Assembly (NCBI GenBank): GCA_934162425.1
Contig: CAKPIS010000001.1
Span: 158,034-222,033 of the forward strand
Reading direction: 5' to 3'
Length of the DNA stretch: 64,000 nucleotides
Source: an uncultured Bacilli bacterium
GTDB taxonomy: Bacteria > Bacillota_I > Bacilli_A > RF39 > UBA660
Position 1 is the stretch's first letter, and every line of letters starts with the position of its first letter. The position numbers and the translations under genes are program-made. Shown here piece after piece: positions 6,943-19,253 of this stretch. A model generated the notes under the pieces. That model saw nothing but the letters and a program-made list of their open reading frames with translations, did not search any database and was not told the DNA's origin.

Positions 6943-7593
6943 TATTTATCACTTCCCTTTTAGTAAAAACTTTTTTATAACTATTTTTTATAATAATTTA
7001 ATTTCTCTTTACTTAAATATTTTTTAGTTATTACTACATCAGTTTCTAATATTTTTCCAAGATGTAAGTCCCATATTTTCTTTTTCTGAATCTGCTCTAT
7101 TATATATTATCTCTGCAGCAGTTTGGTGAGAAACCGCATAGTGCATTTTATTTTGTACTTTTTTACACTTAGTTCGTTAAACATACATTTTAATTAACCA
7201 CAATACACTTGGTTACACTTTAATTCACTATAAATAATTACAAATTAGTATCTAAATTGTATCTAAATGCTATTGTTAAATATTTCAAAATACTAGAATT
7301 TCTTATTTTATTAGATATTTTTTATATCTTACTTGTATGCCTTTGTCTTTTTTTAAGTTTGAATGTTATAAATTCTTCAGTGTCACTTCTAATTATTAAA
7401 TCTTTTAACAATTGCTATCATCTTCTTTGCCTGAAATATTAATTTTCCATAATTGATAATTATCCATTTTTAAATTAACACGATATCCAACTACAATTAT
7501 AATAATTATCTGACCATTTTAGATTTTTAGATCTTAGTTTTTTACCTTTTTTCTTCGTAATGAATATCTTCAAATCCAGCTACTATAATTCCT

Positions 7594-7920
7594 TTACTCA
7601 TTACTACTTACCTTGCTATCTAAACATTTTAAAATTCTAACTGCTTCTTTTCTATCCTTATTTTTTTCTTCTTCTGATAAATCATCATACTTGGTATTCA
7701 TTTGTTTTGTCCATCTATCTACAAATTCTTTAGGTATTGTTAGACTTCCATCGCTATTTGTCTTACATTTACTAAAAAGATGTTTTTGCCATCTTGACCA
7801 TCTGTCGTGCTCATAATCAGATAATTTTTCTATTATATCGTCGTTCTTCATTAATTTGCCTGTCCTCATTTTTTTACTTATTTTATTTAATTCTTCTTTT
7901 ACTTCTTCTAAATTAAGCAT
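7594..7920 (-). CDS. Hypothetical small protein in a decayed region.
   Basis: 108-aa ORF (DRWSRWQKHLF...). No homolog recognised. It may itself be a gene remnant. Confidence 0.2.
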   Translation of the reverse strand: MLNLEEVKEELNKISKKMRTGKLMKNDDIIEKLSDYEHDRWSRWQKHLFSKCKTNSDGSLTIPKEFVDRWTKQMNTKYDDLSEEEKNKDRKEAVRILKCLDSKVSSNE

Positions 7921-8009
7921 ATTTCTAATCTCCCTTTCATTTCATAATTTATCTGTTTCTTTTTCATCAATAAATTTTTTTCAGTCATTCTTACTATCAT
8001 CACTTTCTT

Positions 8010-8516
8010 TTAAATATCAGTTGAAGTTGCCATAAATAAATCTGTAATTTTTTGATAAGTCATTCTTTCACTTACCCTAATTGTTTTAATGCGTTCTAAT
8101 AATTCATCAAAATACTTAGAAACATATTTATTTTCTTTTATAAATCTTTCATCATTTAAAGCAAATTTCTTTATCATATATTCTTTTAATACTTTAGTAG
8201 CCCATATTCTAAACTCTGTTACTTTTTTTTGAATTAACATAATATACAACTACAATTATAGCATCTAAATTATAAATTATTGCATTATATTTTTTCCAGT
8301 ATCAGCAGTTAACGAGCATTTCTTGGCAACTGAATCTTTATTTAATTCATTATCTTGAAATATATGTTTTAAATGTAGGCTTATATTATCTGTTGAACAC
8401 TCGAAAACTTTTGACACTCCTTTTTCAGATAGTCATAATGTTTCTTCTTTGCATATTGCATCTACTATAATGGCGCTATCACTATTTTTATATATAATTA
8501 AGTTATTATCTTCCAT
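8010..8516 (-). pseudogene. RhuM-family (virulence-protein RhuM-like) gene disrupted by in-frame stops and frameshifts, and C-terminally truncated.
   Basis: Reverse-strand translation from ATG 8516 reads MEDNNLIIYKNSDSAIIVDAICKEETL*LSEKGVSKVFECSTDNISLHLKHIFQDNELNKDSVAKKCSLTADTGKNIMQ*... It resumes in the ORF at 8010-8249 (...TEFRIWATKVLKEYMIKKFALNDERFIK...YFDELLERIKTIRVSERMTYQKITDLF). This is collinear with RhuM N-terminal consensus blocks. Confidence 0.55.
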
Positions 8517-8578
8517 AATATATTTTTTATCATCAATATCACTTTTTGATATTTATTTTTTCTAACAGAATTTTTAAT

Positions 8579-8860
8579 TCATTCATCAAAATCTCTATCG
8601 CACTTTAATATTATTTCATTATCTTTTTTACTATATTTATATGAATAACACAAATCATAATCTCCTACTGCATTGCCTTCACTTGTATAATACGAAAAAT
8701 GTCCATCTTCACCAAAATAAATAGTTTCTACTACAGTATCTTCATTCCTAATCCAAGTTCCATTAAAATCATATTTATTTTTACAACCAGCTAATATAAG
8801 TATACTAAATACTATTACAATTATATAATTATCATATTTTTTATTAAACATATACTTCAT
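8579..8860 (-). CDS. Small lipoprotein.
   Basis: 93 aa. Signal peptide with lipobox ILAGC. Confidence 0.4.
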   Translation of the reverse strand: MKYMFNKKYDNYIIVIVFSILILAGCKNKYDFNGTWIRNEDTVVETIYFGEDGHFSYYTSEGNAVGDYDLCYSYKYSKKDNEIILKCDRDFDE

Positions 8861-8864
8861 TCAT

Positions 8865-9614
8865 TTATTTTTTCTTAATTTCAATAGCTAATACTCCATA
8901 TTTTTCTTGTTTTTCCTTAGAATAATATTTTTCCATATCATGATAGTTAGTTGTTTCATCTTTTTCATATCCCAAAGAAATATTATCAAAACATTTATAT
9001 AATTCTTCAAATGAATTGTAGTGATATAAGTTAATAACTTCACATTTTATCTTTTCATTATTTTTTATATTAGTAAATTCTATAATATCATTTATCTTGA
9101 TAGATTTTCTTTTCTCATCATATAATCTCATTTCAATAGTTTTAGTACCATTTTTTATTTTAACAAATGGTTCATCATGTAGTTTCATTTTGTGCATAGT
9201 ATAATTGCTTAATAAGTTATATAATTCTTTTTTATCATAATGCCAATAAATAGTTTTAACAAACTTATCAAGATTGCACCACTTATAATCAATGCTTTCT
9301 TCGTTTAGTATGATATCATTGTCATCTACATATGAGATAAATACATGTTCAGTGCATTTTTTTCCTAACGAATTATAATTAAAAGTTGTATTTAAATCAA
9401 CTATTTTATTTACTACTAAGTTAGTTTCTTCTTTAACTTCTCTTTTTACAGTACTATATAAATCATCGTCTATACTCTCTTTAGCACCTGTTACAGTATA
9501 CCAAAAAGATTTATGAAACTGTGGATCATTACTACTTCCAATTAGCAATAAAAGCTTATTATCTTTATTAATTATAAATGTTAATATTTTCTCCATATTA
9601 TTTAACTCTTCCAA
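8865..9614 (-). CDS. NUDIX hydrolase fused to a C-terminal ASCH (PUA-like) domain.
   Basis: Nudix box GAKESIDDDLYSTVKREVKEETNL. The C-terminal ~100 aa (FVKIKNGTKTIEMRLYDEKRKSIKINDIIEF...VLAIEIK) follows the ASCH/YqfB-like pattern. Confidence 0.5.
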   Translation of the reverse strand: MEELNNMEKILTFIINKDNKLLLLIGSSNDPQFHKSFWYTVTGAKESIDDDLYSTVKREVKEETNLVVNKIVDLNTTFNYNSLGKKCTEHVFISYVDDNDIILNEESIDYKWCNLDKFVKTIYWHYDKKELYNLLSNYTMHKMKLHDEPFVKIKNGTKTIEMRLYDEKRKSIKINDIIEFTNIKNNEKIKCEVINLYHYNSFEELYKCFDNISLGYEKDETTNYHDMEKYYSKEKQEKYGVLAIEIKKK

Positions 9615-10116
9615 TTTTAGTTAATGGAAATATTCTATATGATACACTTCCTAATATATCTTCTTTTTTAATTAAACCAAGTATTCTAGAGTCAGCTGAA
9701 TTACTTCTATTATCACCAACTACGAAATACATATCTCCTGGTATATTTAAATATCCAAGTGTTTCTAATTTAAAATCATCAGTACCAGTTTTGCCATAGG
9801 TATCTTCTATTAAAAAACCATCAATATATAAATTCCCATCTTTATATTCAACATGTTCTCCAGGAAGTCCAATTACTCTTTTAATAAGTTTTTCACCATT
9901 ATACTTAAGTACAACTACATCAAATCTTTTAATATCATTTAGTTTATAATCAAGTTTATTTAATATAACTACATTATTATTATAAAGTGTATCTTCCATT
10001 GATTGTCCATCAACTACAGCTGGAGTTACTATAAAGCTTCTAATTAATACAACTACTATAACTACTATAATATATGGATATATTTTTTTTATTAATTCTT
10101 TAGTTTTTCTACTCAT
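9598..10116 (-). CDS. lepB: Signal peptidase I.
   Basis: Start corrected to ATG 10116 (GGAGGT RBS 5 nt upstream); the track's earlier start (10188) adds 24 residues. TM anchor, catalytic Ser box (GQSMEDTL) and Lys box (KRVIGLPGE), and a GDNRSNSADSR motif. Confidence 0.85.
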   Translation of the reverse strand: MSRKTKELIKKIYPYIIVVIVVVLIRSFIVTPAVVDGQSMEDTLYNNNVVILNKLDYKLNDIKRFDVVVLKYNGEKLIKRVIGLPGEHVEYKDGNLYIDGFLIEDTYGKTGTDDFKLETLGYLNIPGDMYFVVGDNRSNSADSRILGLIKKEDILGSVSYRIFPLTKIGRVK

Positions 10117-10207
10117 ATTTGACCTCCAAATATTAAATATCATACTAATACTTATTTTATCACGCTGTAATTTTAATGTAAATACCAAAAAAACTAAAGC
10201 ATAAGCT

Positions 10208-10546
10208 CTAGTTTCTTTCTTTTAACTTAAATTGACCAACTACATCTCTTGCATAGTATAACTTAGCTCTTCTAGCTTTACCTTTTCTAGTTACTTTAAT
10301 AAAGTCTAGTTTTGGTGAATGAACTGGAAATGTTCTTTCAACACCAACACCACTAGATATTTTACGTACTGTAAAAGTTTCAGATATACCACTACCTTTA
10401 CGAGAAATAACTATTCCTTCGTAAGCTTGTACTCTTTCTTTTTTACCTTCAATAATCTTAACACCAACATTAACAGTGTCACCAACTCTAAATTCAGGTA
10501 TAGTTGGGTTTAGTTGTTCACTTGTAATTTTTTCAATTTTGTTCAT
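10208..10546 (-). CDS. rplS: 50S ribosomal protein L19.
   Basis: 112 aa. Typical L19 sequence ([11 protein letters not shown]...[12 protein letters not shown]). Confidence 0.95.
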
Positions 10547-10652
10547 AATTTTCTAGTCTCCCTTTCATATATATATAACCAGCAATCATGCATAAATAAT
10601 TTAAAAGTTTGTATCGGATTGCTTTTTGAACATTATGATTTTAACACAATAT

Positions 10653-11552
10653 TTATTTTTGTGCAAGTTTTATTTTACTTTCATTTAACTTTTTATCATC
10701 TTCATACCTTTTATTTTGATTTAGTCCAGATACTATTTTATTTATTAAAGATATTTTAAATGACTCACTCATATCATCTAATGATGATATAGCATATAAA
10801 AATTCTTCTGCTGTTTTAAATCTATTAATTAATGAAGCATCTATATCCGCTACTGCATGTAACATATAATATGCATCACCTAATTCAAAAATTTTATCAG
10901 TTAATTTAGCTATGTCTGCACCTATTATATCCTTAGCAAATAAATATATATAATGAGAATTATTAGTACTTATTAATTTTTCTTCTAACTTTTTAACGTC
11001 AAACGAATTACTTTTACTAGCATAATCATATATTAACTTAGCATCTAAACTTTCTAAAGCAACGTTTTGTATATATGATTCATTAACTATATTTGAATTA
11101 ACATAATTATAATGAACAAGCATTTTAACAAATGAAATTCTTCGTTCTTTAGATTTAGCAAGTTTATTTATAATGTATTCTTCATCTATTAAGTTCTTAT
11201 TATATAAGTAAATTATAACAGATGAATCATTATAATAATAATCAAAACACATATTTACTAATTTTTCTAATTTATCTTTTGATATACAAGATATAAATGA
11301 ATTAATATAAAGAAGTCTAGCTAAATAAGTAGTTGCGTTCTTTGATATAAAGTAATCTGCTATTTTATCTAAATTTTCTTTCTTAGAAAATAGAGGAACT
11401 GATGCAACTATAGTTTTTTTATTATATTTATTTAATAGTTCATCTAATAAATCATCTTCATCATATTTACCATTTAACTTATTTACTATTTCATCACAAC
11501 TTTTAGCTTTACATATTATTTTATTAATTATATATTTATCATGTTTATTCAT
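10653..11552 (-). CDS. Hypothetical helical protein (ORFan) inserted between trmD and rplS.
   Basis: 299-aa ORF. No motif recognised. Confidence 0.35.
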   Translation of the reverse strand: MNKHDKYIINKIICKAKSCDEIVNKLNGKYDEDDLLDELLNKYNKKTIVASVPLFSKKENLDKIADYFISKNATTYLARLLYINSFISCISKDKLEKLVNMCFDYYYNDSSVIIYLYNKNLIDEEYIINKLAKSKERRISFVKMLVHYNYVNSNIVNESYIQNVALESLDAKLIYDYASKSNSFDVKKLEEKLISTNNSHYIYLFAKDIIGADIAKLTDKIFELGDAYYMLHAVADIDASLINRFKTAEEFLYAISSLDDMSESFKISLINKIVSGLNQNKRYEDDKKLNESKIKLAQK

Positions 11553-11556
11553 AAAT

Positions 11557-12756
11557 CTACCTTCTCTTTGAATTTTCTATTTCATTTACAAGCATACTAT
11601 TTTGAACTGATTTTGCTTTAACAAATTCACTAACTAAAAGATTTATATTTTTAATTATTTTATCCAAATTTTCTTTACCTAAATGCATAGCATAAGTAGA
11701 TATAATAAATGATTTTAACATTTCTGCCTCTCCTAAAACTCTAGAAGTTGCTTCATCATCACTATCATTTAAAGCTAAATTAAATCTATAAGTTAATATA
11801 TTTATCTTCTTCATTATATTTTTAATAGCAGCTTTTTCTATAAATGATTCTTTAACAATTAAAATTCTACTAACAGATCCATCTTTATTTTTAGCTTTAA
11901 GCTTATAACCTGCTATATTTCTAGGTTTTAAAACGGTAACTGCTCTAGTTTTATCATCTTTAAATAAAACAAATTTACCAGTTTTTTTAACTTGTTTTTT
12001 TTCTTTTACTTCTACTACTTTAATATTTTTAATATCATCTGTTAATATTTCATTTCTGCTTCTTTTTAATCCCGTTTTATCAATCTTAGTTTTTTTTGCT
12101 AATAAATCTGGTCTTTTAATAGATGTAATATTTATTTGTTTTTCTTCTCTCCATTTTTTAATAGCAGCATGATTACCAGATAATAAAACATCTGGAACTT
12201 TCATTCCTTTATAATTTCTTGGTTTAGTATATGTTGGATAATCTAATAAATTATTATTAAAAGACTCTTTTAAATGTGATTCTTCTTCAATAACACCAGG
12301 AAGTAGTCTAGTTACTGAATCTGCAATTACCATAGCTGGAAGTTCTCCTCCAGTTAATACATAATCTCCAATAGATATTTCTTCATCACATATATTTTTT
12401 ATTCTCTCATCAAAGCCTTCATAATGACCACAAATAAGAATTAAATGTTCTTCTTTTGATAACTTATAGGCCATACTTTGATCATATTTCTTACCTTGTG
12501 GTGATAATAATATAACTTTAGAATTATCTTTTTTTATTTTTTCGACACAATCAAAGATAGGCTGACACATTAACACCATACCATTGCCACCACCGTATGG
12601 AGTATCATCTACCTTCTTATGTTTATTTAATGAATAATCTCTAAAATTATGCGTATTAATTTCTATTTTTTTGTTATCTATAGCCCTTTTTATTATTGAT
12701 TCACCTTTAAAACCATCAAACATTTCAGGAAAAAGTGTTAAAATATCTATCTTCAT
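11557..12756 (-). CDS. trmD: tRNA (guanine37-N1)-methyltransferase with an unusual ~150-aa C-terminal extension.
   Basis: The N-terminal ~240 aa are canonical TrmD (MKIDILTLFPEMF..., GGGNGMVL, ICGHYEGFDERI, SIGDYVLTGGELPAMV). The ORF continues uninterrupted for ~150 further residues of unknown affinity. Confidence 0.85.
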   Translation of the reverse strand: MKIDILTLFPEMFDGFKGESIIKRAIDNKKIEINTHNFRDYSLNKHKKVDDTPYGGGNGMVLMCQPIFDCVEKIKKDNSKVILLSPQGKKYDQSMAYKLSKEEHLILICGHYEGFDERIKNICDEEISIGDYVLTGGELPAMVIADSVTRLLPGVIEEESHLKESFNNNLLDYPTYTKPRNYKGMKVPDVLLSGNHAAIKKWREEKQINITSIKRPDLLAKKTKIDKTGLKRSRNEILTDDIKNIKVVEVKEKKQVKKTGKFVLFKDDKTRAVTVLKPRNIAGYKLKAKNKDGSVSRILIVKESFIEKAAIKNIMKKINILTYRFNLALNDSDDEATSRVLGEAEMLKSFIISTYAMHLGKENLDKIIKNINLLVSEFVKAKSVQNSMLVNEIENSKRR

Positions 12757-12806
12757 AAAATCACTCCAATTAACAATACAATTATAACACTAAATGCTTA
12801 TAATTC

Positions 12807-13757
12807 CTACTTATTTTTCTTATAATAAGCTATTTTATAAGTATCAATAATTGCTAATTTACTAGCTTTATCTATAGGATCTAATTTAGCATCAGAGTCT
12901 ATATAATTTCTTGTTTCATTCATAATACAAGCAAAATTTTCATCTTCAAAATTAGGAAATCTATCATAAGATAATTTATCTATACTATTTCTTGATATAT
13001 ATCTATTTAACTTTTTAGCTTTTTGATGAACTGGATTCTTTTCTACTTTTAAAATACTATTATATTCATCTATTTTTTCTTTTATTAAGTTAGATATATC
13101 TATCTTATCTCCTTCAATTGCATTTATATAATAATATAAACTTAAATAATTATAAAACTTTTCTTCATCATTTATTACAACATAATTCTTACTTTTAATA
13201 GATGATAAAATATTAGATAAACTATTATACATATAATCTGTTGGAATACTTCTTTTTTCATTATCTTTATATTTTGCAACTATTACATCTGATATAGCAG
13301 CTATAAAACCAGTTGCAGCATCTTTTGCTTTTCTAGATTTAAGTTTACTTTCTAAAACAGAAAAGCATTTATCTAATATGCTTAGTATATCATCTACATT
13401 ATTTAAACTACCAACCTTTTCGTATTTAGATAATTCTTGATAAAACAAAATAGGCATTAATAAATTACCATTAGGATTTAAGTATCCTACTTCTAAACAA
13501 TCTTTTATATATCCTCTTTTAGTATCATCTTTTAAACAATTATATAATCTACTTAAATTAACTCCCTGTTTAAGAATACTTGAATCATCTTTTATTTCAC
13601 CAATCCATTTAATATTTTCATCAATTACCATTAAAAATTTTTTATTAAGTTCACTTATTTTTCTTCCTTGATTAACAGTTAATTCTAAGCATAATTTTGT
13701 TAATTCACCAAGTTTATTTAACTCGTTTAAGTCAACCAATTTCTCATTCTTTTTCAT
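12807..13757 (-). CDS. Hypothetical protein (ORFan) inserted between rimM and trmD.
   Basis: 316-aa ORF with no recognisable motif. Confidence 0.35.
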   Translation of the reverse strand: MKKNEKLVDLNELNKLGELTKLCLELTVNQGRKISELNKKFLMVIDENIKWIGEIKDDSSILKQGVNLSRLYNCLKDDTKRGYIKDCLEVGYLNPNGNLLMPILFYQELSKYEKVGSLNNVDDILSILDKCFSVLESKLKSRKAKDAATGFIAAISDVIVAKYKDNEKRSIPTDYMYNSLSNILSSIKSKNYVVINDEEKFYNYLSLYYYINAIEGDKIDISNLIKEKIDEYNSILKVEKNPVHQKAKKLNRYISRNSIDKLSYDRFPNFEDENFACIMNETRNYIDSDAKLDPIDKASKLAIIDTYKIAYYKKNK

Positions 13758-13871
13758 ATAAAATCCCCCTATACAAGTTTGATATGTTAGCAGAAATACA
13801 TAAAAAAGTCAATTATTACGAAAAAAAACTATTAACAAAATTCATTTGCTAATAGTCTATAAATTTAAAAA

Positions 13872-14420
13872 TTACTTTCTAGTTTTCTTAAGTGTTTTAT
13901 CTTTAGTTTCATCTAAACTATAAGAAACTTCTTTATTATCACTATCATTAGTCTTTTCAAGTTCAAATAACATATCATTTAAAATTTTATCAATATCCAT
14001 CTCATTATTAGATTTTGCTTTTTGTATGGTATTATTTGTAATTGTTTTTACCTTATCTAATTCTTTTTCTTTTCCTTCTTCATCTAATTCTTCTAATCTT
14101 TTTAAAACCATGCCTTTTTTTTCTTTGTTTTCTATTAAGTTTTTAGCACAGTCATAACCAAATTTCATAGCAATTATAACAGTTGGAACTCCAATTATAC
14201 CCCACATTGCATTATTTGATAAATAAGGATTAAATCCTTTTGACAACCCTATATCAGTTAAAAGTGCAATAATTAAAATATATAATGTCACACAACCAAT
14301 ACTCAAAAACACCTCACGTAAATTTTTCGAATCATATGATTCTAACATCTCTTCTAATATCTTTCTACTCTCGGTTTTTTCTAATTCTTCTCTAAAAGAT
14401 CTTTTGTCCTTATTTTTCAT
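13872..14420 (-). CDS. Hypothetical membrane protein (two TM helices plus a charged coiled-coil tail) inserted between rimM and trmD.
   Basis: 182 aa. TM segments VFLSIGCVTLYILIIALL and MWGIIGVPTVIIAM. Confidence 0.35.
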   Translation of the reverse strand: MKNKDKRSFREELEKTESRKILEEMLESYDSKNLREVFLSIGCVTLYILIIALLTDIGLSKGFNPYLSNNAMWGIIGVPTVIIAMKFGYDCAKNLIENKEKKGMVLKRLEELDEEGKEKELDKVKTITNNTIQKAKSNNEMDIDKILNDMLFELEKTNDSDNKEVSYSLDETKDKTLKKTRK

Positions 14421-14536
14421 TAAAATCCCCTCATTTCGGCTATATATAATAGCATTTTTAACGTATTATGTCAAATTTAGCTATCAAACCATCAATAATA
14501 AAAGAAAAGTACTGATATTAAAAAATAACATAAATA

Positions 14537-15019
14537 TTATATAAGTCCTTTAATATTTTTTATAATAATAGTTTTTTTATTTGTGTTAATATTATCTATA
14601 AATTCTTTAACGTATGGTATCATTACATTATTATCTAATACCAAAACTTCATTAGCAGGAGTATCTAAAACTTCTTTTATAATGCCAATATTTTTATTAT
14701 CTATAATGACATTAAAACCAATTAAATCAATAGATAAAAAAGTATTATCATCTAAATGTAAATCATCTTTATTTATATATACTAAAGACCCTTTTAAATA
14801 TTCTACTTTATTTATATCGTAATTATCTTTAAATACTAACATATCAAAATTTTTATGTACTCTATATTTTTCTATTTCAAATTCTTCTTTATCTTTACCA
14901 ATATATACTTTAAACCCTTTAACAAACACTTTATCCTTATATCTAAACTTTGAAAGTAATCTAACTTCTCCTTTAATACCATGAGTATTAACAAGCTTTC
15001 CTATATACAAATAATTCAT
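14537..15019 (-). CDS. rimM: 16S rRNA processing protein RimM.
   Basis: 160 aa. N-terminal YIGKLVNTHGIKGEVRL signature and a PRC-barrel C-terminus. Confidence 0.85.
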   Translation of the reverse strand: MNYLYIGKLVNTHGIKGEVRLLSKFRYKDKVFVKGFKVYIGKDKEEFEIEKYRVHKNFDMLVFKDNYDINKVEYLKGSLVYINKDDLHLDDNTFLSIDLIGFNVIIDNKNIGIIKEVLDTPANEVLVLDNNVMIPYVKEFIDNINTNKKTIIIKNIKGLI

Positions 15020-15748
15020 TTAATTCCTCCTATTTATTTCATACATAATAATAGATGTTGCAACTGCTACATTTAAACTTTCACAATCTTCATTTATATC
15101 AATATATATATTTTTATCAATCATATTTTTAATAGATTTTTCTATTCCTTGACCTTCATTTCCCATTATAACAGCTAATTTACCTGTCTTTAAAACACTA
15201 TTTAAATTTATTCCATTATCTACGTCAGTACCATATACCATATAATTATTTTCTTTTAAATATGGAATAAATTCATTTAAATTTCTTACTATAACATTAA
15301 CTTTAAAAAGCATTCCTCTAGCACTTCTTATAACTTTTTCATTATACTTTTTAACAGAATTTAAACTAAGTACAATAGTATCTATATTAAATGCTTTAGC
15401 ACTTCTTATTATAGTACCTAAATTACCTGGATCTTGCACATCATCTAATATTATTACTTTATCACCTAAGTTTTCTTTTTCTTCTATAAATTTACATATT
15501 CCAACTATACTTGATTTAGATGGAAGAGTACTTATATATTGCATTATTTTATCCGATACTATGTTATTTTTAATATTATAATTAGTATCAAATGTAGAAA
15601 AAGTTTCAAGTAAAACACCAGAAAGAAAAGCTTCTTCAACTAAGTGTTTTCCTTCAATAACAAACTTTTTTTCTTGGTTCATATACTTAGTACTTCTTAA
15701 TTTATTTAAATATTTTATTTTACTATTTTCTTTAGAATCTATTATCAT
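15020..15748 (-). CDS. SpoU/TrmH-family RNA 2'-O-methyltransferase.
   Basis: SPOUT motifs (ILDDVQDPGNLGTIIRSA, VIMGNEGQGI, LNVAVATSIIMYE). Confidence 0.75.
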   Translation of the reverse strand: MIIDSKENSKIKYLNKLRSTKYMNQEKKFVIEGKHLVEEAFLSGVLLETFSTFDTNYNIKNNIVSDKIMQYISTLPSKSSIVGICKFIEEKENLGDKVIILDDVQDPGNLGTIIRSAKAFNIDTIVLSLNSVKKYNEKVIRSARGMLFKVNVIVRNLNEFIPYLKENNYMVYGTDVDNGINLNSVLKTGKLAVIMGNEGQGIEKSIKNMIDKNIYIDINEDCESLNVAVATSIIMYEINRRN

Positions 15749-15750
15749 AA

Positions 15751-16401
15751 CTACTCCTTTAATTCCTTTCTAACTATTTTATATTCAGGGCAATATTTAG
15801 AAACTGTTTGCCAAAATAATCTACTATGATCAAAATGAACAAAGTGAGATAATTCATGTACAATTACATAATTTAAATATTTATGATCTTTTTTTATAAG
15901 TTCTAAATTAAGTGTAACTGAATTATTCTTTCTATTACAAACACCCCATCTTGTCTTCATACTTCTTACCTTTAAATTTGGATAAGGTATTTTTTCATCA
16001 AATGCATAATATGCTTCATCTAAGTATAGTTTAAATACTTCATAAGCTTTTTTCTTATACCATTTTTCTTTCATATTAACATCTTTTACATAAAGTGTAT
16101 TATTATCATATATAGGCTTTTTAACACTACTATATATAACGGTAATATTTTTACCCAAAAGCATGTTTTCTTCTTCTAATTTCTTATCATTATTTTTTAG
16201 TCTTTTATCAATCATATTTTTTATGCTGATAATATTATCTTTTACTACTTTTTCTACCATTTTATTTGTATAAATATATGGACAACTAACATTAATATTT
16301 AAATCATCATCTACTCTAATATATAAATTTTTATTATTTTTTCTTGTTATACATATATCATAATATTTATCATCAATAAGTATATTCATATATATCACCA
16401 T
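15751..16401 (-). CDS. YgjP/DUF45-like zinc metallohydrolase.
   Basis: HEXXH motif in the context VIVHELSHFVHFDHSRLF near the C-terminus. Confidence 0.55.
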   Translation of the reverse strand: MVIYMNILIDDKYYDICITRKNNKNLYIRVDDDLNINVSCPYIYTNKMVEKVVKDNIISIKNMIDKRLKNNDKKLEEENMLLGKNITVIYSSVKKPIYDNNTLYVKDVNMKEKWYKKKAYEVFKLYLDEAYYAFDEKIPYPNLKVRSMKTRWGVCNRKNNSVTLNLELIKKDHKYLNYVIVHELSHFVHFDHSRLFWQTVSKYCPEYKIVRKELKE

Positions 16402-16449
16402 CTTTAATTAACATATTCATTATAATATAACTTTGTTATTTTTTAAAGA

Positions 16450-17005
16450 AAAAATCACTAATAGTGATTCTTAATTTCTAAAATACGGCGCATCACAAAA
16501 CATATTTGAATTAACATTATTATTAGTTCCATTACTAATTACAGTAACATAATTACTATCTAATTTTAAATTATTATAAGTTAATATATAATTAGAGTTT
16601 AATACAAAGTATTTATTTTGTTTTCTTATTGGCTTAAATCGTGAGCTCTGATTTTGATGAGGGGAGATGCTTCATTTAGATTAATTGTTAGCATATTAGT
16701 ATTGCAATCATAAGAATATTCTCCTTGCTGTGCTGCTTGTCCATTAATAGTAACACTTCCAGGTACAAATAAAGCAAGACTTGAATCTATTTGATCAGTT
16801 ATAATTGGATTTTTATATGTTTATCTGTTTGATTATCTAAAGTTATAGTATATGTAAGATTTCCACTACCCTAATTTTCCATACCAGCTTCTTTAATAAG
16901 AGAAATGTCATCAATAACGTTTACAACAGATGTATTAAAAGTTAGAATAGTAGGAATATCATTATAAGTACCAGATGTTTTTGATATATTACTTAATTCA
17001 TTCAT
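16450..17005 (-). pseudogene. Degraded gene remnant. A reverse-strand ATG at 17005 is followed by an ORF broken by several stops.
   Basis: Locally GC-richer stretch (gctgtgctgcttgtcc). The reverse translation MNELSNISKTSGTYNDIPTILTFNTSVVNVIDDISLIKEAGMEN*... is repeatedly interrupted. No intact ORF of 60 aa or more. Confidence 0.3.
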
Positions 17006-17055
17006 AGTAACTTCCTATATATAAATATGAAAATTAAAAAAATGTAGAAATTATT

Positions 17056-17400
17056 CTACATAAAAAATTGAATTACTTTATCTACGCCTATTAAATATAT
17101 AACTAAAGCTGCAATATCAAGTAAAAGTAAGAAAGATAATATAATTATTATAGGAGCTTTACTTCTAGTTTTAACAGGTTCTGTTGGAACATTATCAATA
17201 TTTAAATCAAGTTCTAAAGCTTCATTAGCATCATTATTATCAGTTTTAACATCTTCCATAACAAGCGTATCACTACCTACTTTAGAATTTTTATCATCTA
17301 CTGACACATCATTTTCACTTGTCAAATTAACACTAGGCTTAATATCACTTATTTCACTAACATCATTCATTTCATCTAATACTTCATCTTTATTTTCCAT
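17056..17400 (-). CDS. Acidic protein with a C-terminal transmembrane anchor.
   Basis: Start probably MENKDEVLDEMND at 17400; the track begins at 17433. D/E-rich N-terminus and a C-terminal TM (PIIIILSFLLLLDIAALVIYLIG). Confidence 0.3.
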   Translation of the reverse strand: MENKDEVLDEMNDVSEISDIKPSVNLTSENDVSVDDKNSKVGSDTLVMEDVKTDNNDANEALELDLNIDNVPTEPVKTRSKAPIIIILSFLLLLDIAALVIYLIGVDKVIQFFM

Positions 17401-17445
17401 GATAAGTCCTCCTACTATACTATTAGTATACATTACTTTAAAACT

Positions 17446-18531
17446 TTATTCAAGAACTTTTAATATAATTTCATTAGATACAAATAAATATTTTTTAGGA
17501 ATATATATATATTCTTTTGTTTCTTTTAAATATCCATCTTTAATTAAATCATTTAAATTATATAAATTGTTTATTTTTTTACCATATTTATTAAAAAAAT
17601 GCTTTTTATTTATTCCTGTAGTTTTTCTAAGATTAAGCATAACTTCATCATTAATTAACATATTTTCATCTAATTTTTCAGTATATGTTTTTGTTATTCC
17701 ATCTATATATTTAAATACACTTTTAGTATTATCATATCTAATATTATTAATAAAACCAGAAGCACCAGATCCAAAACCATAATAATTATCATTATTCCAA
17801 TAAGTTAAATTATGTTTAGATTCAAACCCTTTAAGAGCAAAATTACTTATTTCATACTGAGTAAATCCATTTTTCTCTAACTTATTTCTTATTAAATCAT
17901 ACATAGCACTTTGCATCTCGCTATCCACTTCTTTTATGTTTCTTATCTTAAGCATAGTATTATCTTCTATAATAAGTGCATATATACTAACATGTTTAAT
18001 ATCTAGATTACTAATTATATTTAAATCAGAAACTATATCTTCCATCGTTTGACCATATAGAGCATACATTAAATCTATATTTATATTATCAAAGTATTTC
18101 TTACACAAATTAATATTTTTTATCATTTCTTCTTTATCTATTTTTCTACCTAGAATATCTTCAAACTTTTTATTAAAACTTTCTATTCCAATACTTATTC
18201 TATTTACTTTATTTTCTTTTAATATTTTAAGCAGTTTCTCTGTTATATCATCATAGTTACACTCAAAAGTAAATTCATATCTACTTCTTAAATTTATCTT
18301 ATTAGTAATAGAAAATAAGCAATTTAAATTATCATAACTAAGGCAACTAGGAGTTCCACCACCAATATATACTGTCTTTATTTTTTCATTTTTATAATTA
18401 TTTAAAAACTCATTTTTCAATGCAACTAAATACTTACTTACAATATCTTCTTTATAATAATTTTTACAAAAATCGCAATACGAACATATCTTTTTACAAA
18501 AAGGTATATGAAAATAAATGCTTTCTATCAT
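17446..18531 (-). CDS. hemW: Radical-SAM heme chaperone HemW (coproporphyrinogen-III-oxidase-like).
   Basis: CX3CX2C radical-SAM motif (CKKICSYCDFC). 361 aa. It lies next to lepA, as is typical of Firmicutes. Confidence 0.85.
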   Translation of the reverse strand: MIESIYFHIPFCKKICSYCDFCKNYYKEDIVSKYLVALKNEFLNNYKNEKIKTVYIGGGTPSCLSYDNLNCLFSITNKINLRSRYEFTFECNYDDITEKLLKILKENKVNRISIGIESFNKKFEDILGRKIDKEEMIKNINLCKKYFDNINIDLMYALYGQTMEDIVSDLNIISNLDIKHVSIYALIIEDNTMLKIRNIKEVDSEMQSAMYDLIRNKLEKNGFTQYEISNFALKGFESKHNLTYWNNDNYYGFGSGASGFINNIRYDNTKSVFKYIDGITKTYTEKLDENMLINDEVMLNLRKTTGINKKHFFNKYGKKINNLYNLNDLIKDGYLKETKEYIYIPKKYLFVSNEIILKVLE

Positions 18532-19253
18532 GACATAAACCTTATTTTTTTAGAATTTACTAGTATATTTTCATTATAATCAGTAAATATATTATCACAA
18601 TATTTTTTTATTAAATGTTCATCTTTAATTATTTCATTATTTAAATATACAACTAATAAATCATTAATAACTACTTCGTTAGATAAGTTAAAGTTTTTAT
18701 CAAGAAATAATCTTAAAATCAAAGGATCACTATATTTATTATTACGTAATATATAAAATGCATCATAACTATCATCACAAGTTTCACTAAAATTTATAAA
18801 ATTATAATTTAAAGACAGATATTTATCATTACTTACATTATAAATCCTAGTACCATCTAATTCACATTCTATTATATTTTCATCATCTATAATAAAACAT
18901 GAATATATTTGTTTAATAGGATTTATTGGTATAAAATCATTTTCTTCTTTTCTAAATTTAACGTTATTTAAATCTATAACATAGTTTCTTTTATCTCTAG
19001 TTTCATATAATGCCTTATCATTATTAAAATATATTATATTAATATTATATGTGCAATCAATATAATCTTCTAATGTAACAATTTCTTTTCTAAAAGGTAT
19101 TACACCATTTTTATTACTATCACACGTACCTGTTATAACTTCTATTTTATCATCACTTAGTTTTCTTACATTATATACTTCATAAAATTTTTTATTACTA
19201 TCTATATCTATAAAAGCTAATATATCATTATTTTTAACTGATAATTTTTTCAT
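18528..19253 (-). CDS. Hypothetical protein (ORFan) inserted between lepA and hemW.
   Basis: 241-aa ORF. It overlaps the hemW start by 4 nt. Confidence 0.35.
   Translation of the reverse strand: MKKLSVKNNDILAFIDIDSNKKFYEVYNVRKLSDDKIEVITGTCDSNKNGVIPFRKEIVTLEDYIDCTYNINIIYFNNDKALYETRDKRNYVIDLNNVKFRKEENDFIPINPIKQIYSCFIIDDENIIECELDGTRIYNVSNDKYLSLNYNFINFSETCDDSYDAFYILRNNKYSDPLILRLFLDKNFNLSNEVVINDLLVVYLNNEIIKDEHLIKKYCDNIFTDYNENILVNSKKIRFMS

Follow-up and report, generated by a model that had tools for sequence, protein, structure and literature searches.

A long TrmD in an uncultured gut Bacilli lineage is a fusion with a protein family absent from the libraries searched

What makes the TrmD protein of an uncultured Bacilli bacterium so long, and do the open reading frames (ORFs) of no recognised family that separate its gene from rimM and rplS have anything to do with it? 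The question arises from a stretch of 64,000 nucleotides (assembly GCA_934162425.1, contig CAKPIS010000001.1, positions 158,034 to 222,033; hereafter the window, whose own numbering is used for coordinates), in which the minus strand carries, as read from the ORF list and from Pfam and NCBIfam scans, the gene order DUF45, SpoU, rimM, orf182, orf316, trmD, orf299, rplS, lepB. A first-pass annotation of this DNA had pointed out the genes without assignment in the rimM–trmD and trmD–rplS gaps as well as the long TrmD, and the same data bear it out on both counts. TrmD, a tRNA m1G37 methyltransferase, is essential in bacteria and is being pursued as a target for antibiotics; its structure is regarded as uniform.

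The trmD gene (11557–12756 in the ORF list) encodes 399 amino acids (aa), and the extension is continuous with the enzyme, as annotated at first pass; it had been put at ~150 aa, whereas it measures 177 aa (residues 223–399), and it has no library match. The part that precedes it is predicted to be a bona fide TrmD. Indeed, residues 1–224 match the equivalog model TIGR00088 over its full length (328.9 bits, for a cut-off of 195), NF000648 with 322 bits (cut-off 220) and PF01746 with an E-value of 4.6e-69. This catalytic part (residues 1–222; 12091–12756) comprises the SPOUT domain and the usual C-terminal domain, ends at the motif RPDLL and contains both GHYEGFDER and SIGDYVLTGGE, the motifs for S-adenosylmethionine (SAM) binding and for the knot. 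It is 89% identical to its counterpart in the closest species (L001, our reference for between-species comparisons), with a ratio of non-synonymous to synonymous substitution rates (dN/dS) of 0.06.

The origin of the extension emerges from a comparison with related genomes. We scanned one genome per species for TrmD proteins and obtained 80 loci; some belong to uncultured gut Bacilli, among them Clostridium sp. CAG:594 and Candidatus Aphodocola, and the others to Erysipelotrichaceae. The 19 loci of the latter family have a TrmD of 239–240 aa without a partner, and rplS follows ~115 nt downstream. TrmD is 358–408 aa long in the loci numbered L001–L029, which we call the fused class (L026 is cut at a contig end). 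In sister clades, which we call split, a TrmD of 217–227 aa has directly behind it a separate ORF of 143–159 aa, which overlaps trmD or begins within 25 nt of it. These separate ORFs align with the extension of the window protein from its first strand through its basic C-terminal tail, and an end-to-end alignment could be made of the extension with 18 fused or stand-alone members, the window protein being part of the seed. The module that they share (~147 aa), hereafter X, corresponds to residues 257–399 of the window TrmD (11557–11988, stop codon included).

The X profile has a match fused to or directly behind trmD in 60 of the 61 non-canonical loci, the sole miss (L051) being a locus that a contig end cuts, and no match in the 19 canonical Erysipelotrichaceae loci. 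Across L001–L029, the E-values lie between 1e-17 and 1e-40, with the window protein belonging to the seed alignment. X still adjoins trmD in five loci that have no rplS within 7 kb downstream (L042, L045, L054, L055 and L061). As a reverse check, we looked at the proteins found via the X profile and not via TrmD: three out of three lie directly behind trmD.

The way in which TrmD and X are joined varies within the fused class. The two short fusions (L028 and L029, 358–359 aa) show an almost direct join, and the other fused members have a Lys-rich linker of ~34–60 aa with a conserved motif, DDIKNIKV; in the window, this linker spans residues 223–256 (11989–12090), as delimited by the alignment of fused and stand-alone members. 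It is missing from L028 and L029 and from the stand-alone X proteins. A neighbour-joining tree built from SpoU, RimM and TrmD places the fused genomes in a single clade. Taken together, the comparisons identify the extension as a gene fusion with X, produced by loss of the trmD stop codon in one monophyletic subclade that includes the window. We read the pattern as a single fusion, after which the linker grew, on a tree without support values.

That both parts of the long TrmD are separate genes in the sister clades would also suit a different explanation, namely an artefact in which two genes are merged by a frameshift of sequencing or assembly, or by an overlooked stop. A frameshift that would end TrmD at ~240 aa, already contemplated at first pass, was looked for and none was found. 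A protein look-up with orf299 led to two more assemblies of the species (L081 and L082), which have the gene order of the window; L081 contains an intact 399-aa TrmD and L082 is cut inside trmD. Moreover, 28 further species-level genomes from many studies have a continuous TrmD ORF of 358–408 aa, which also answers in the affirmative the first-pass suggestion to check whether the extension is conserved in related taxa (358–408 aa throughout L001–L029, apart from the cut L026), and the linker sequence is itself conserved. Since the ORF is identical in the independent same-species assembly and the frame is continuous in 28 other species, we consider an artefact ruled out and give it practically no credence.

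For the X family, a profile search of 5.8 billion proteins returned 202 clusters at E ≤0.001, which carry no family annotation for the X module, nearly all of the named ones being called 'hypothetical'. Nothing significant was found for the extension or the family in Pfam, NCBIfam, PHROGs, PADLOC, a PDB profile search and two Foldseek searches; the profile and structure searches of the extension that the first-pass annotation had proposed thus gave no Pfam, NCBIfam or PDB relative. X and its stand-alone relatives make up a family absent from every library searched, and our literature search turned up no publication that describes a fusion of TrmD or a partner for it. Two weak candidates were set aside. 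Pfam DUF356 (PF04009) weakly matched 22 of 82 X members (best E 0.0073), and the single member checked scored 13.5 bits for a cut-off of 29.9. The PDB entry 9hu3, 'DNA ligase subunit B', came up with an E-value of 0.0045 (domain E 0.21) and was taken as a chance match. Note that one protein, P0093 (288 aa, on a 2.3-kb ENA contig), joins ~135 X-family residues at its start to a DNA-ligase OB-fold domain (PF14743); its ligase domain coincides with the weak PDB match, which we treat as chance, and P0093, known from a single short contig, may be a chimera.

X has a small beta-rich part, then two helices, the second of them long, with an acidic loop in between, and a basic tail, and the best-conserved motif of the family, GF-x-I-K-P-x-N-N-x-x-Y-x-G-x-E-V, lies in the N-terminal part. 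AlphaFold2 modelled the helical part at predicted local distance difference test (pLDDT) scores of 82–97 both in the window extension (helix, acidic loop and long helix) and in a stand-alone protein (three helices); in the window module the helices reached 87–97, and the linker, residues 223–256, scored below 50. The whole 177-aa extension has an isoelectric point of 9.97. Its dN/dS against L001 is 0.15, to be compared with 0.06 for the TrmD core and 0.29 for SpoU, and X is under purifying selection.

The presence of X goes along with a change in TrmD itself. Every TrmD that has an X partner stops 0–8 residues past RPDLL, and the terminal helix 'LSxEExxxLxEI' of canonical TrmDs is missing from all of them. 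Another position of note is the one equivalent to D169 of E. coli TrmD, the proposed general-base Asp. The window protein has Glu there (KESF, residues ~163–167; 12256–12270), as do 26 of 59 TrmDs from clades of the split and fused kinds; Asp is found in every one of the 18 canonical TrmDs of Erysipelotrichaceae compared.

What, then, might X do? Our best guess is that X is an accessory subunit or domain of TrmD. We infer this partnership from the strict linkage of the two genes, their tight spacing, the retention of the fusion (in at least 29 species-level genomes), the selection acting on X, its basic charge and the loss of the terminal helix of TrmD; the tight spacing is in addition suggestive of translational coupling. 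X would work together with the TrmD dimer, its most likely role being that of an extra arm that binds RNA and/or braces the dimer for the tRNA substrate, perhaps making up for the loss of the terminal helix. We hold the chances that X is a direct functional partner of TrmD to be even, and rate a specific role in tRNA binding lower. A bolder proposal is that X is an obligate TrmD subunit across a large clade of uncultured gut Bacilli (a fused domain in the subclade of the window), which would replace the terminal helix and either aid tRNA recognition or tether m1G37 methylation to another partner, for example the ribosome; we put this forward tentatively, as something possible rather than probable.

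The fusion could also be devoid of functional meaning: X would then have a job unrelated to TrmD, for instance in association with the ribosome or L19, and loss of the stop codon would simply be tolerated. Genes that overlap or lie 1–25 nt apart, as in the split clades, could be joined by one mutation, most genomes have X between trmD and rplS, and no sequence or structure link ties X to any RNA-binding fold. On the other hand, X stays with trmD, and not with rplS, where the 7 kb downstream lack rplS, and a fusion without meaning would hardly be expected to persist in so many species-level genomes, to acquire a linker with a conserved motif, to keep its extension under purifying selection or to coincide exactly with the loss of the terminal helix of TrmD. 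We regard this explanation as unlikely, albeit a serious competitor.

Several considerations nevertheless temper the proposal that X is an accessory part of TrmD. Contact between X and TrmD and RNA binding by X are both inferred from sequence, and adjacent co-transcribed genes can fuse without functional coupling. The location of X 5' of rplS in many genomes makes a ribosome-related role possible. The N-terminal 50 residues of X were modelled at pLDDT 50–60, with only a beta hairpin suggested, and Foldseek found no significant match to X in the PDB, the best being to the helical part of C-Ala, a domain of human mitochondrial alanyl-tRNA synthetase (AlaRS; E 0.36). Finally, the tree behind the single fusion event is a quick neighbour-joining one.

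We now turn to the three ORFs that flank trmD: orf182 (13872–14420) and orf316 (12807–13757) between rimM and trmD, and orf299 (10653–11552) between trmD and rplS. They are real genes under weak constraint. Their frames are intact over 180–316 codons, in DNA in which stop codons abound, and each is preceded by a strong Shine-Dalgarno sequence; by an estimate from base composition, the probability of a random open frame of 300 codons at 23% G+C is ~4e-13. They are 37–51% identical to their L001 counterparts, to be compared with 89–96% for rimM, trmD and rplS, and their between-species dN/dS ranges from 0.49 to 0.66. None has a match in Pfam, NCBIfam, PHROGs or PADLOC. The first-pass annotation had called all three ORFans; the profile searches that it proposed yielded no library family for any of them, and they showed that orf316 belongs to a family found across the fused clade, whereas orf182 and orf299 are indeed narrowly distributed.

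Homologues of orf182 are confined to the window, L081 and L001, that is, to two closely related species. The protein has charged, Lys/Glu-rich ends and one strong hydrophobic span (residues 37–59, Kyte-Doolittle 2.56); of the two transmembrane segments initially assigned to it, the second is only a weaker hydrophobic segment that averages ~1.1 by hand calculation. Its dN/dS against L001 is 0.49 and its Shine-Dalgarno sequence is AGGGGA. A promoter-like site precedes the gene (14446–14474; TTGACA, a 17-nt spacer and TATTAT with TG in front). It has 11 of 12 matches and is the best site within 9500–17500, but promoter-like sites as a whole occur at chance frequency in this AT-rich region (76 for 73 expected), which makes it a lead only; its motif AAATTTGACATAATACG also occurs in the rimM–orf182 spacer of L001. 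Behind the stop codon lies an intrinsic-terminator-like hairpin (13821–13858) with a 14-bp stem and a run of eight U residues (RNA fold of -13.3 kcal/mol, z = -5.06, none of 200 shuffles as good), which the consensus terminator scan missed because its stem is AT-rich. As far as these signals can tell, orf182 is a membrane-protein cassette with a promoter-like site and a terminator of its own. The idea that genes here hitch-hike on ribosomal promoters, voiced at first pass, finds no support in this arrangement. A pair of repeats spaced by 1776 nt had hinted at a duplicated relic of the 5' end of trmD in the rimM–orf182 spacer; with a local-alignment p of ~0.09 in the window and nothing in L001, L010, L083 and L089, we dropped it as unsupported.

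The orf316 gene belongs to a family of ~300–390-aa proteins, with nine representatives in an exhaustive search of 1.84 billion proteins; the iterated profile gave 25 ORF matches in 24 of the 90 sequences scanned, window counted. Members lie between rimM and trmD in the window, L001, L010, L083 and L089; in L084 and L085, a member stands directly 5' of trmD or behind a 161-aa ORF, the presence of rimM there being unconfirmed. In 15 other loci the member lies 5' of DUF45, usually with polC upstream. In the subclade of the window, the gene has been relocated from its usual polC–DUF45 position to the rimM–trmD junction; in the tree, the window groups with L001 and L010 in a single clade (the remaining loci with orf316 between rimM and trmD lie outside the tree sample). 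Within the species its dN/dS is 0.15. It has no Pfam or PDB match, and hhalign comparisons of all unassigned proteins of the trmD–rplS slot and of the upstream region found it unrelated to the others. All this describes, at the level of sequence, a clade-wide, fast-evolving and dispensable family. As an observation apart, a family of 334–378 aa without assignment lies between an orf316 member and DUF45, 3' of polC, in L007 (3985–4989), L027 (3827–4903) and relatives; its two groups, fam12 and fam23, are remotely related (hhalign probability 80%).

The profile of orf299, run against 5.8 billion proteins, gave four matches, three of them homologues and the fourth the slot protein of L011 that belongs to the seed. 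Its homologue in L001 is 37% identical, with a dN/dS of 0.66 (0.23 within the species), and the slot protein of L004 (L004_328) is a probable remote relative, with an hhalign probability of 73% and an E-value of 3e-5. In 10 relatives there is nothing in the trmD–rplS slot, and others have unrelated genes there. Its occupants fall into at least eight unrelated families, including a repeat protein, a WG-repeat protein, a DUF285 protein and several others, and orf299 is one of these occupants of a permissive, variable slot. One family of 350 aa occupies it in L005 (3144–4205), L007 (8196–9251), L008 (8196–9254), L017, L019, L022 and L026, is broken into pieces in L013 and L016, and matches nothing in Pfam, NCBIfam, PHROGs or PADLOC. 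A common origin of the unassigned slot and upstream proteins was considered and discarded, the all-against-all hhalign comparison linking only fam12 with fam23 and orf299 with L004_328.

Other occupants of the region behind trmD were noted in passing. In the next-closest lineage, the fused trmD is followed by a gene for a 639-aa protein without a Pfam match (L010, 8222–10141; L083, 5175–7094); the trmD–rplS link is broken in L010, rplS not being within 7 kb downstream. In some split-clade genomes, a block of several kb separates the X gene from rplS (L072, 6910–13161; L094, 4462–8441). According to the Pfam annotations of L094, the block contains a gene with a tRNA_edit domain, an alanine racemase gene, a 405-aa ORF without assignment and an asparagine synthase gene; in L072 these are followed by an extra 458-aa ORF, Mur-ligase-like as judged by eye. 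The slot thus takes large insertions too.

Are the three flanking ORFs dedicated, lineage-specific ribosome or tRNA-maturation factors recruited for co-expression? All three share the strand of the operon and have good Shine-Dalgarno sequences, orf299 begins 4 nt past the trmD stop, and the orf316 family is always found beside the DUF45–SpoU–rimM–trmD block, in either of two positions. However, orf182 and orf299 are restricted to one or two species-level lineages, and, of the 25 relatives from the genome scan with a fused TrmD and with rimM on the contig, 22 have rimM abutting trmD, with a gap of 2–5 nt. Neither the empty slots nor the fast evolution (dN/dS 0.49–0.66) would suit dedicated factors, and orf316 is missing from seven relatives with full upstream flanks (L002, L006, L011, L015, L019, L021 and L029) and has neither an invariant column nor an enzyme-like motif in its family alignment. 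We judge such a role improbable. Lineage-specific tRNA-maturation machinery, as envisaged at first pass, is a reasonable description of the TrmD extension, which is conserved, selected and linked to trmD, and not of these ORFs.

Mobile or selfish cargo (a prophage remnant, an insertion sequence, a toxin–antitoxin pair or a defence island) is another way to read them. A slot with at least eight unrelated families resembles an integration hot spot, orf182 is a self-contained cassette with its promoter-like site and terminator, and decayed genes lie near. One of these, a 79-aa ORF (8010–8249, minus strand), is a fragment of the RhuM family, a gene remnant near the operon whose L081 counterpart is annotated PF13310. 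The other is a 650-nt stretch between orf125 and DUF45 (16402–17055, minus strand) that contains no ORF of at least 60 aa and whose broken translation resembles a surface-protein repeat of the DUF11/SpaA type (GSGNLTYTITLDNQ..., VTINGQAAQQGEYSYD); it is probably a decayed gene. Yet PHROG and PADLOC searches gave no match below an E-value of 0.05, tblastn found nothing for orf299 and orf316 in 50,697 phage records and 72,556 plasmids (orf182 was not part of that search), and no integrase or transposase ORF of at least 60 aa was found within 7000–18000, by a Pfam scan on part of the ORFs. Furthermore, there are no meaningful flanking direct or inverted repeats, the G+C content is that of the surroundings, and orf316 is vertically inherited across the clade. 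We find this reading very improbable.

Of the first-pass suggestion that the ORFs are accessory or selfish insertions, then, the accessory half is retained and the selfish half is not. That the three are accessory genes and not core machinery fits better with the mostly abutting rimM and trmD, the often empty slot and the fast evolution, on which this reading is based. One point counts against it: orf316 lies near the cluster in ~24 genomes, in two positions, which could mean a functional link rather than a passenger. As for the explanation as a whole, with X as an accessory subunit or domain of TrmD and the flanking ORFs as accessory genes, we consider it reasonably probable.

The surrounding genes complete the picture. 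The DUF45/YgjP-like metallohydrolase gene (15751–16401; PF01863, E 3e-37) opens the conserved DUF45–SpoU–rimM–trmD block and keeps its position in L001–L029. It is followed by a gene for a SpoU-class RNA 2'-O-methyltransferase (15020–15748; PF00588, E 1.7e-38, and PF22435) with an MRM3-like substrate-binding domain and a SpoU domain, which is the direct 5' neighbour of rimM across the fused clade and at most loci of the split clades, and by rimM (14537–15019; Pfam RimM and PRC_RimM, 95% identity with the L001 copy). By reading the sequence, we found an extended -10-like element, TGTTATAAT (12781–12789), in the 50-nt spacer before trmD. Downstream of orf299 come rplS, for ribosomal protein L19 (10208–10546; PF01245, E 3.7e-44), and lepB, for signal peptidase I (9598–10188; PF10502), a pairing kept in most relatives. 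The G+C content of the region is 23%, equal to that of the rest of the window. As annotated at first pass, rpsP and the KH protein gene are not 5' of rimM, where SpoU and DUF45 lie instead: no S16 or KH match was obtained in the whole 64 kb, and the same queries found rpsP–KH directly 5' of rimM in 18 Erysipelotrichaceae loci. Covariance models gave no Rfam match of any family up to E 1 within 8000–18000, hence none for an L19 leader. Gene content and order indicate that, in this lineage of uncultured gut Bacilli with 23% G+C, the cluster has been rebuilt as DUF45–SpoU–rimM–trmD–X–rplS–lepB.

Next to this cluster, a single 249-aa NUDIX–ASCH ORF with a TTG start (8865–9614, minus strand) overlaps lepB; in L081, this stretch is annotated as a pair of separate genes, for 135 aa (NUDIX) and 110 aa (ASCH). 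One form or the other is a variant due to a frameshift or a fusion. Further genes without a family stand among housekeeping genes at 18528–19253 and 17056–17433.

If the proposed partnership of X and TrmD is correct, TrmD would be a two-component enzyme in this clade, with a substrate-binding architecture unlike that of every TrmD studied. It would represent the first natural variation of TrmD architecture, clade-wide, with a partner that is split or fused according to lineage. The fusion, in suggesting that TrmD and X cooperate, offers a ready-made hypothesis and 202 sequence clusters with which to probe it, and the X family is a concrete lead for specialists of tRNA modification. The three-ORF part of the locus is ordinary for a small, AT-rich and fast-evolving genome: orf182 and orf299 illustrate how, in such genomes, accessory genes that evolve fast come to occupy the gaps of even a very conserved operon, and orf316, an 'ORFan' that profile iteration turned into a clade-wide family, calls for caution in genome scans.

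How does X compare with known systems? C-Ala is a tRNA-binding and dimerisation module, and the C-Ala domain of AlaRS (PDB 6now) is the best Foldseek match of the stand-alone X model, with 84 columns aligned at a root-mean-square deviation of 2.0 Å, a TM-score of 0.49 on the query and a Foldseek probability of 1.0. However, the E-value of 0.36 is not significant, identity is 15%, the helices alone are matched, generic helical bundles reach similar scores and no AlaRS appears in the PDB profile search; we therefore rejected the assignment of X as a C-Ala domain. The rpsP–ylqC(KH)–ylqD–rimM–trmD–rplS operon of Firmicutes resembles the present cluster in that a small protein of unassigned function, YlqD, travels with rimM and trmD. 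It differs in that YlqD precedes rimM and X follows trmD, and in that the window cluster lacks rpsP and the KH gene. No X member matches the Pfam YlqD model; a YlqD sequence of unconfirmed accuracy matched no locus, and we draw no conclusion from it.

With canonical TrmD (E. coli/H. influenzae type, ~240–255 aa), the window protein shares a full-length match of its residues 1–222 to the equivalog models, the SAM-binding and knot motifs, and a gene behind rimM as in most bacteria. It departs from it in lacking the helix past RPDLL, in having an added linker and module of 177 aa and in having Glu for Asp at the proposed general-base position. A 2022 review of SPOUT enzymes lists TrmD with the standard C-terminal extension only, and the word 'fusion' is absent from it (PMC9508554). 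In SPOUT enzymes, SAM is bound by the knotted catalytic domain and the substrate RNA by extensions at the N or C terminus (PMC9508554). Compared with the extensions of TrmJ, TrmH, RlmB and Trm10, X has no detectable sequence or fold relation and is a separate polypeptide in the sister clades, but the principle would be the same: a basic module appended to TrmD would act like the RNA-binding domains of these enzymes.

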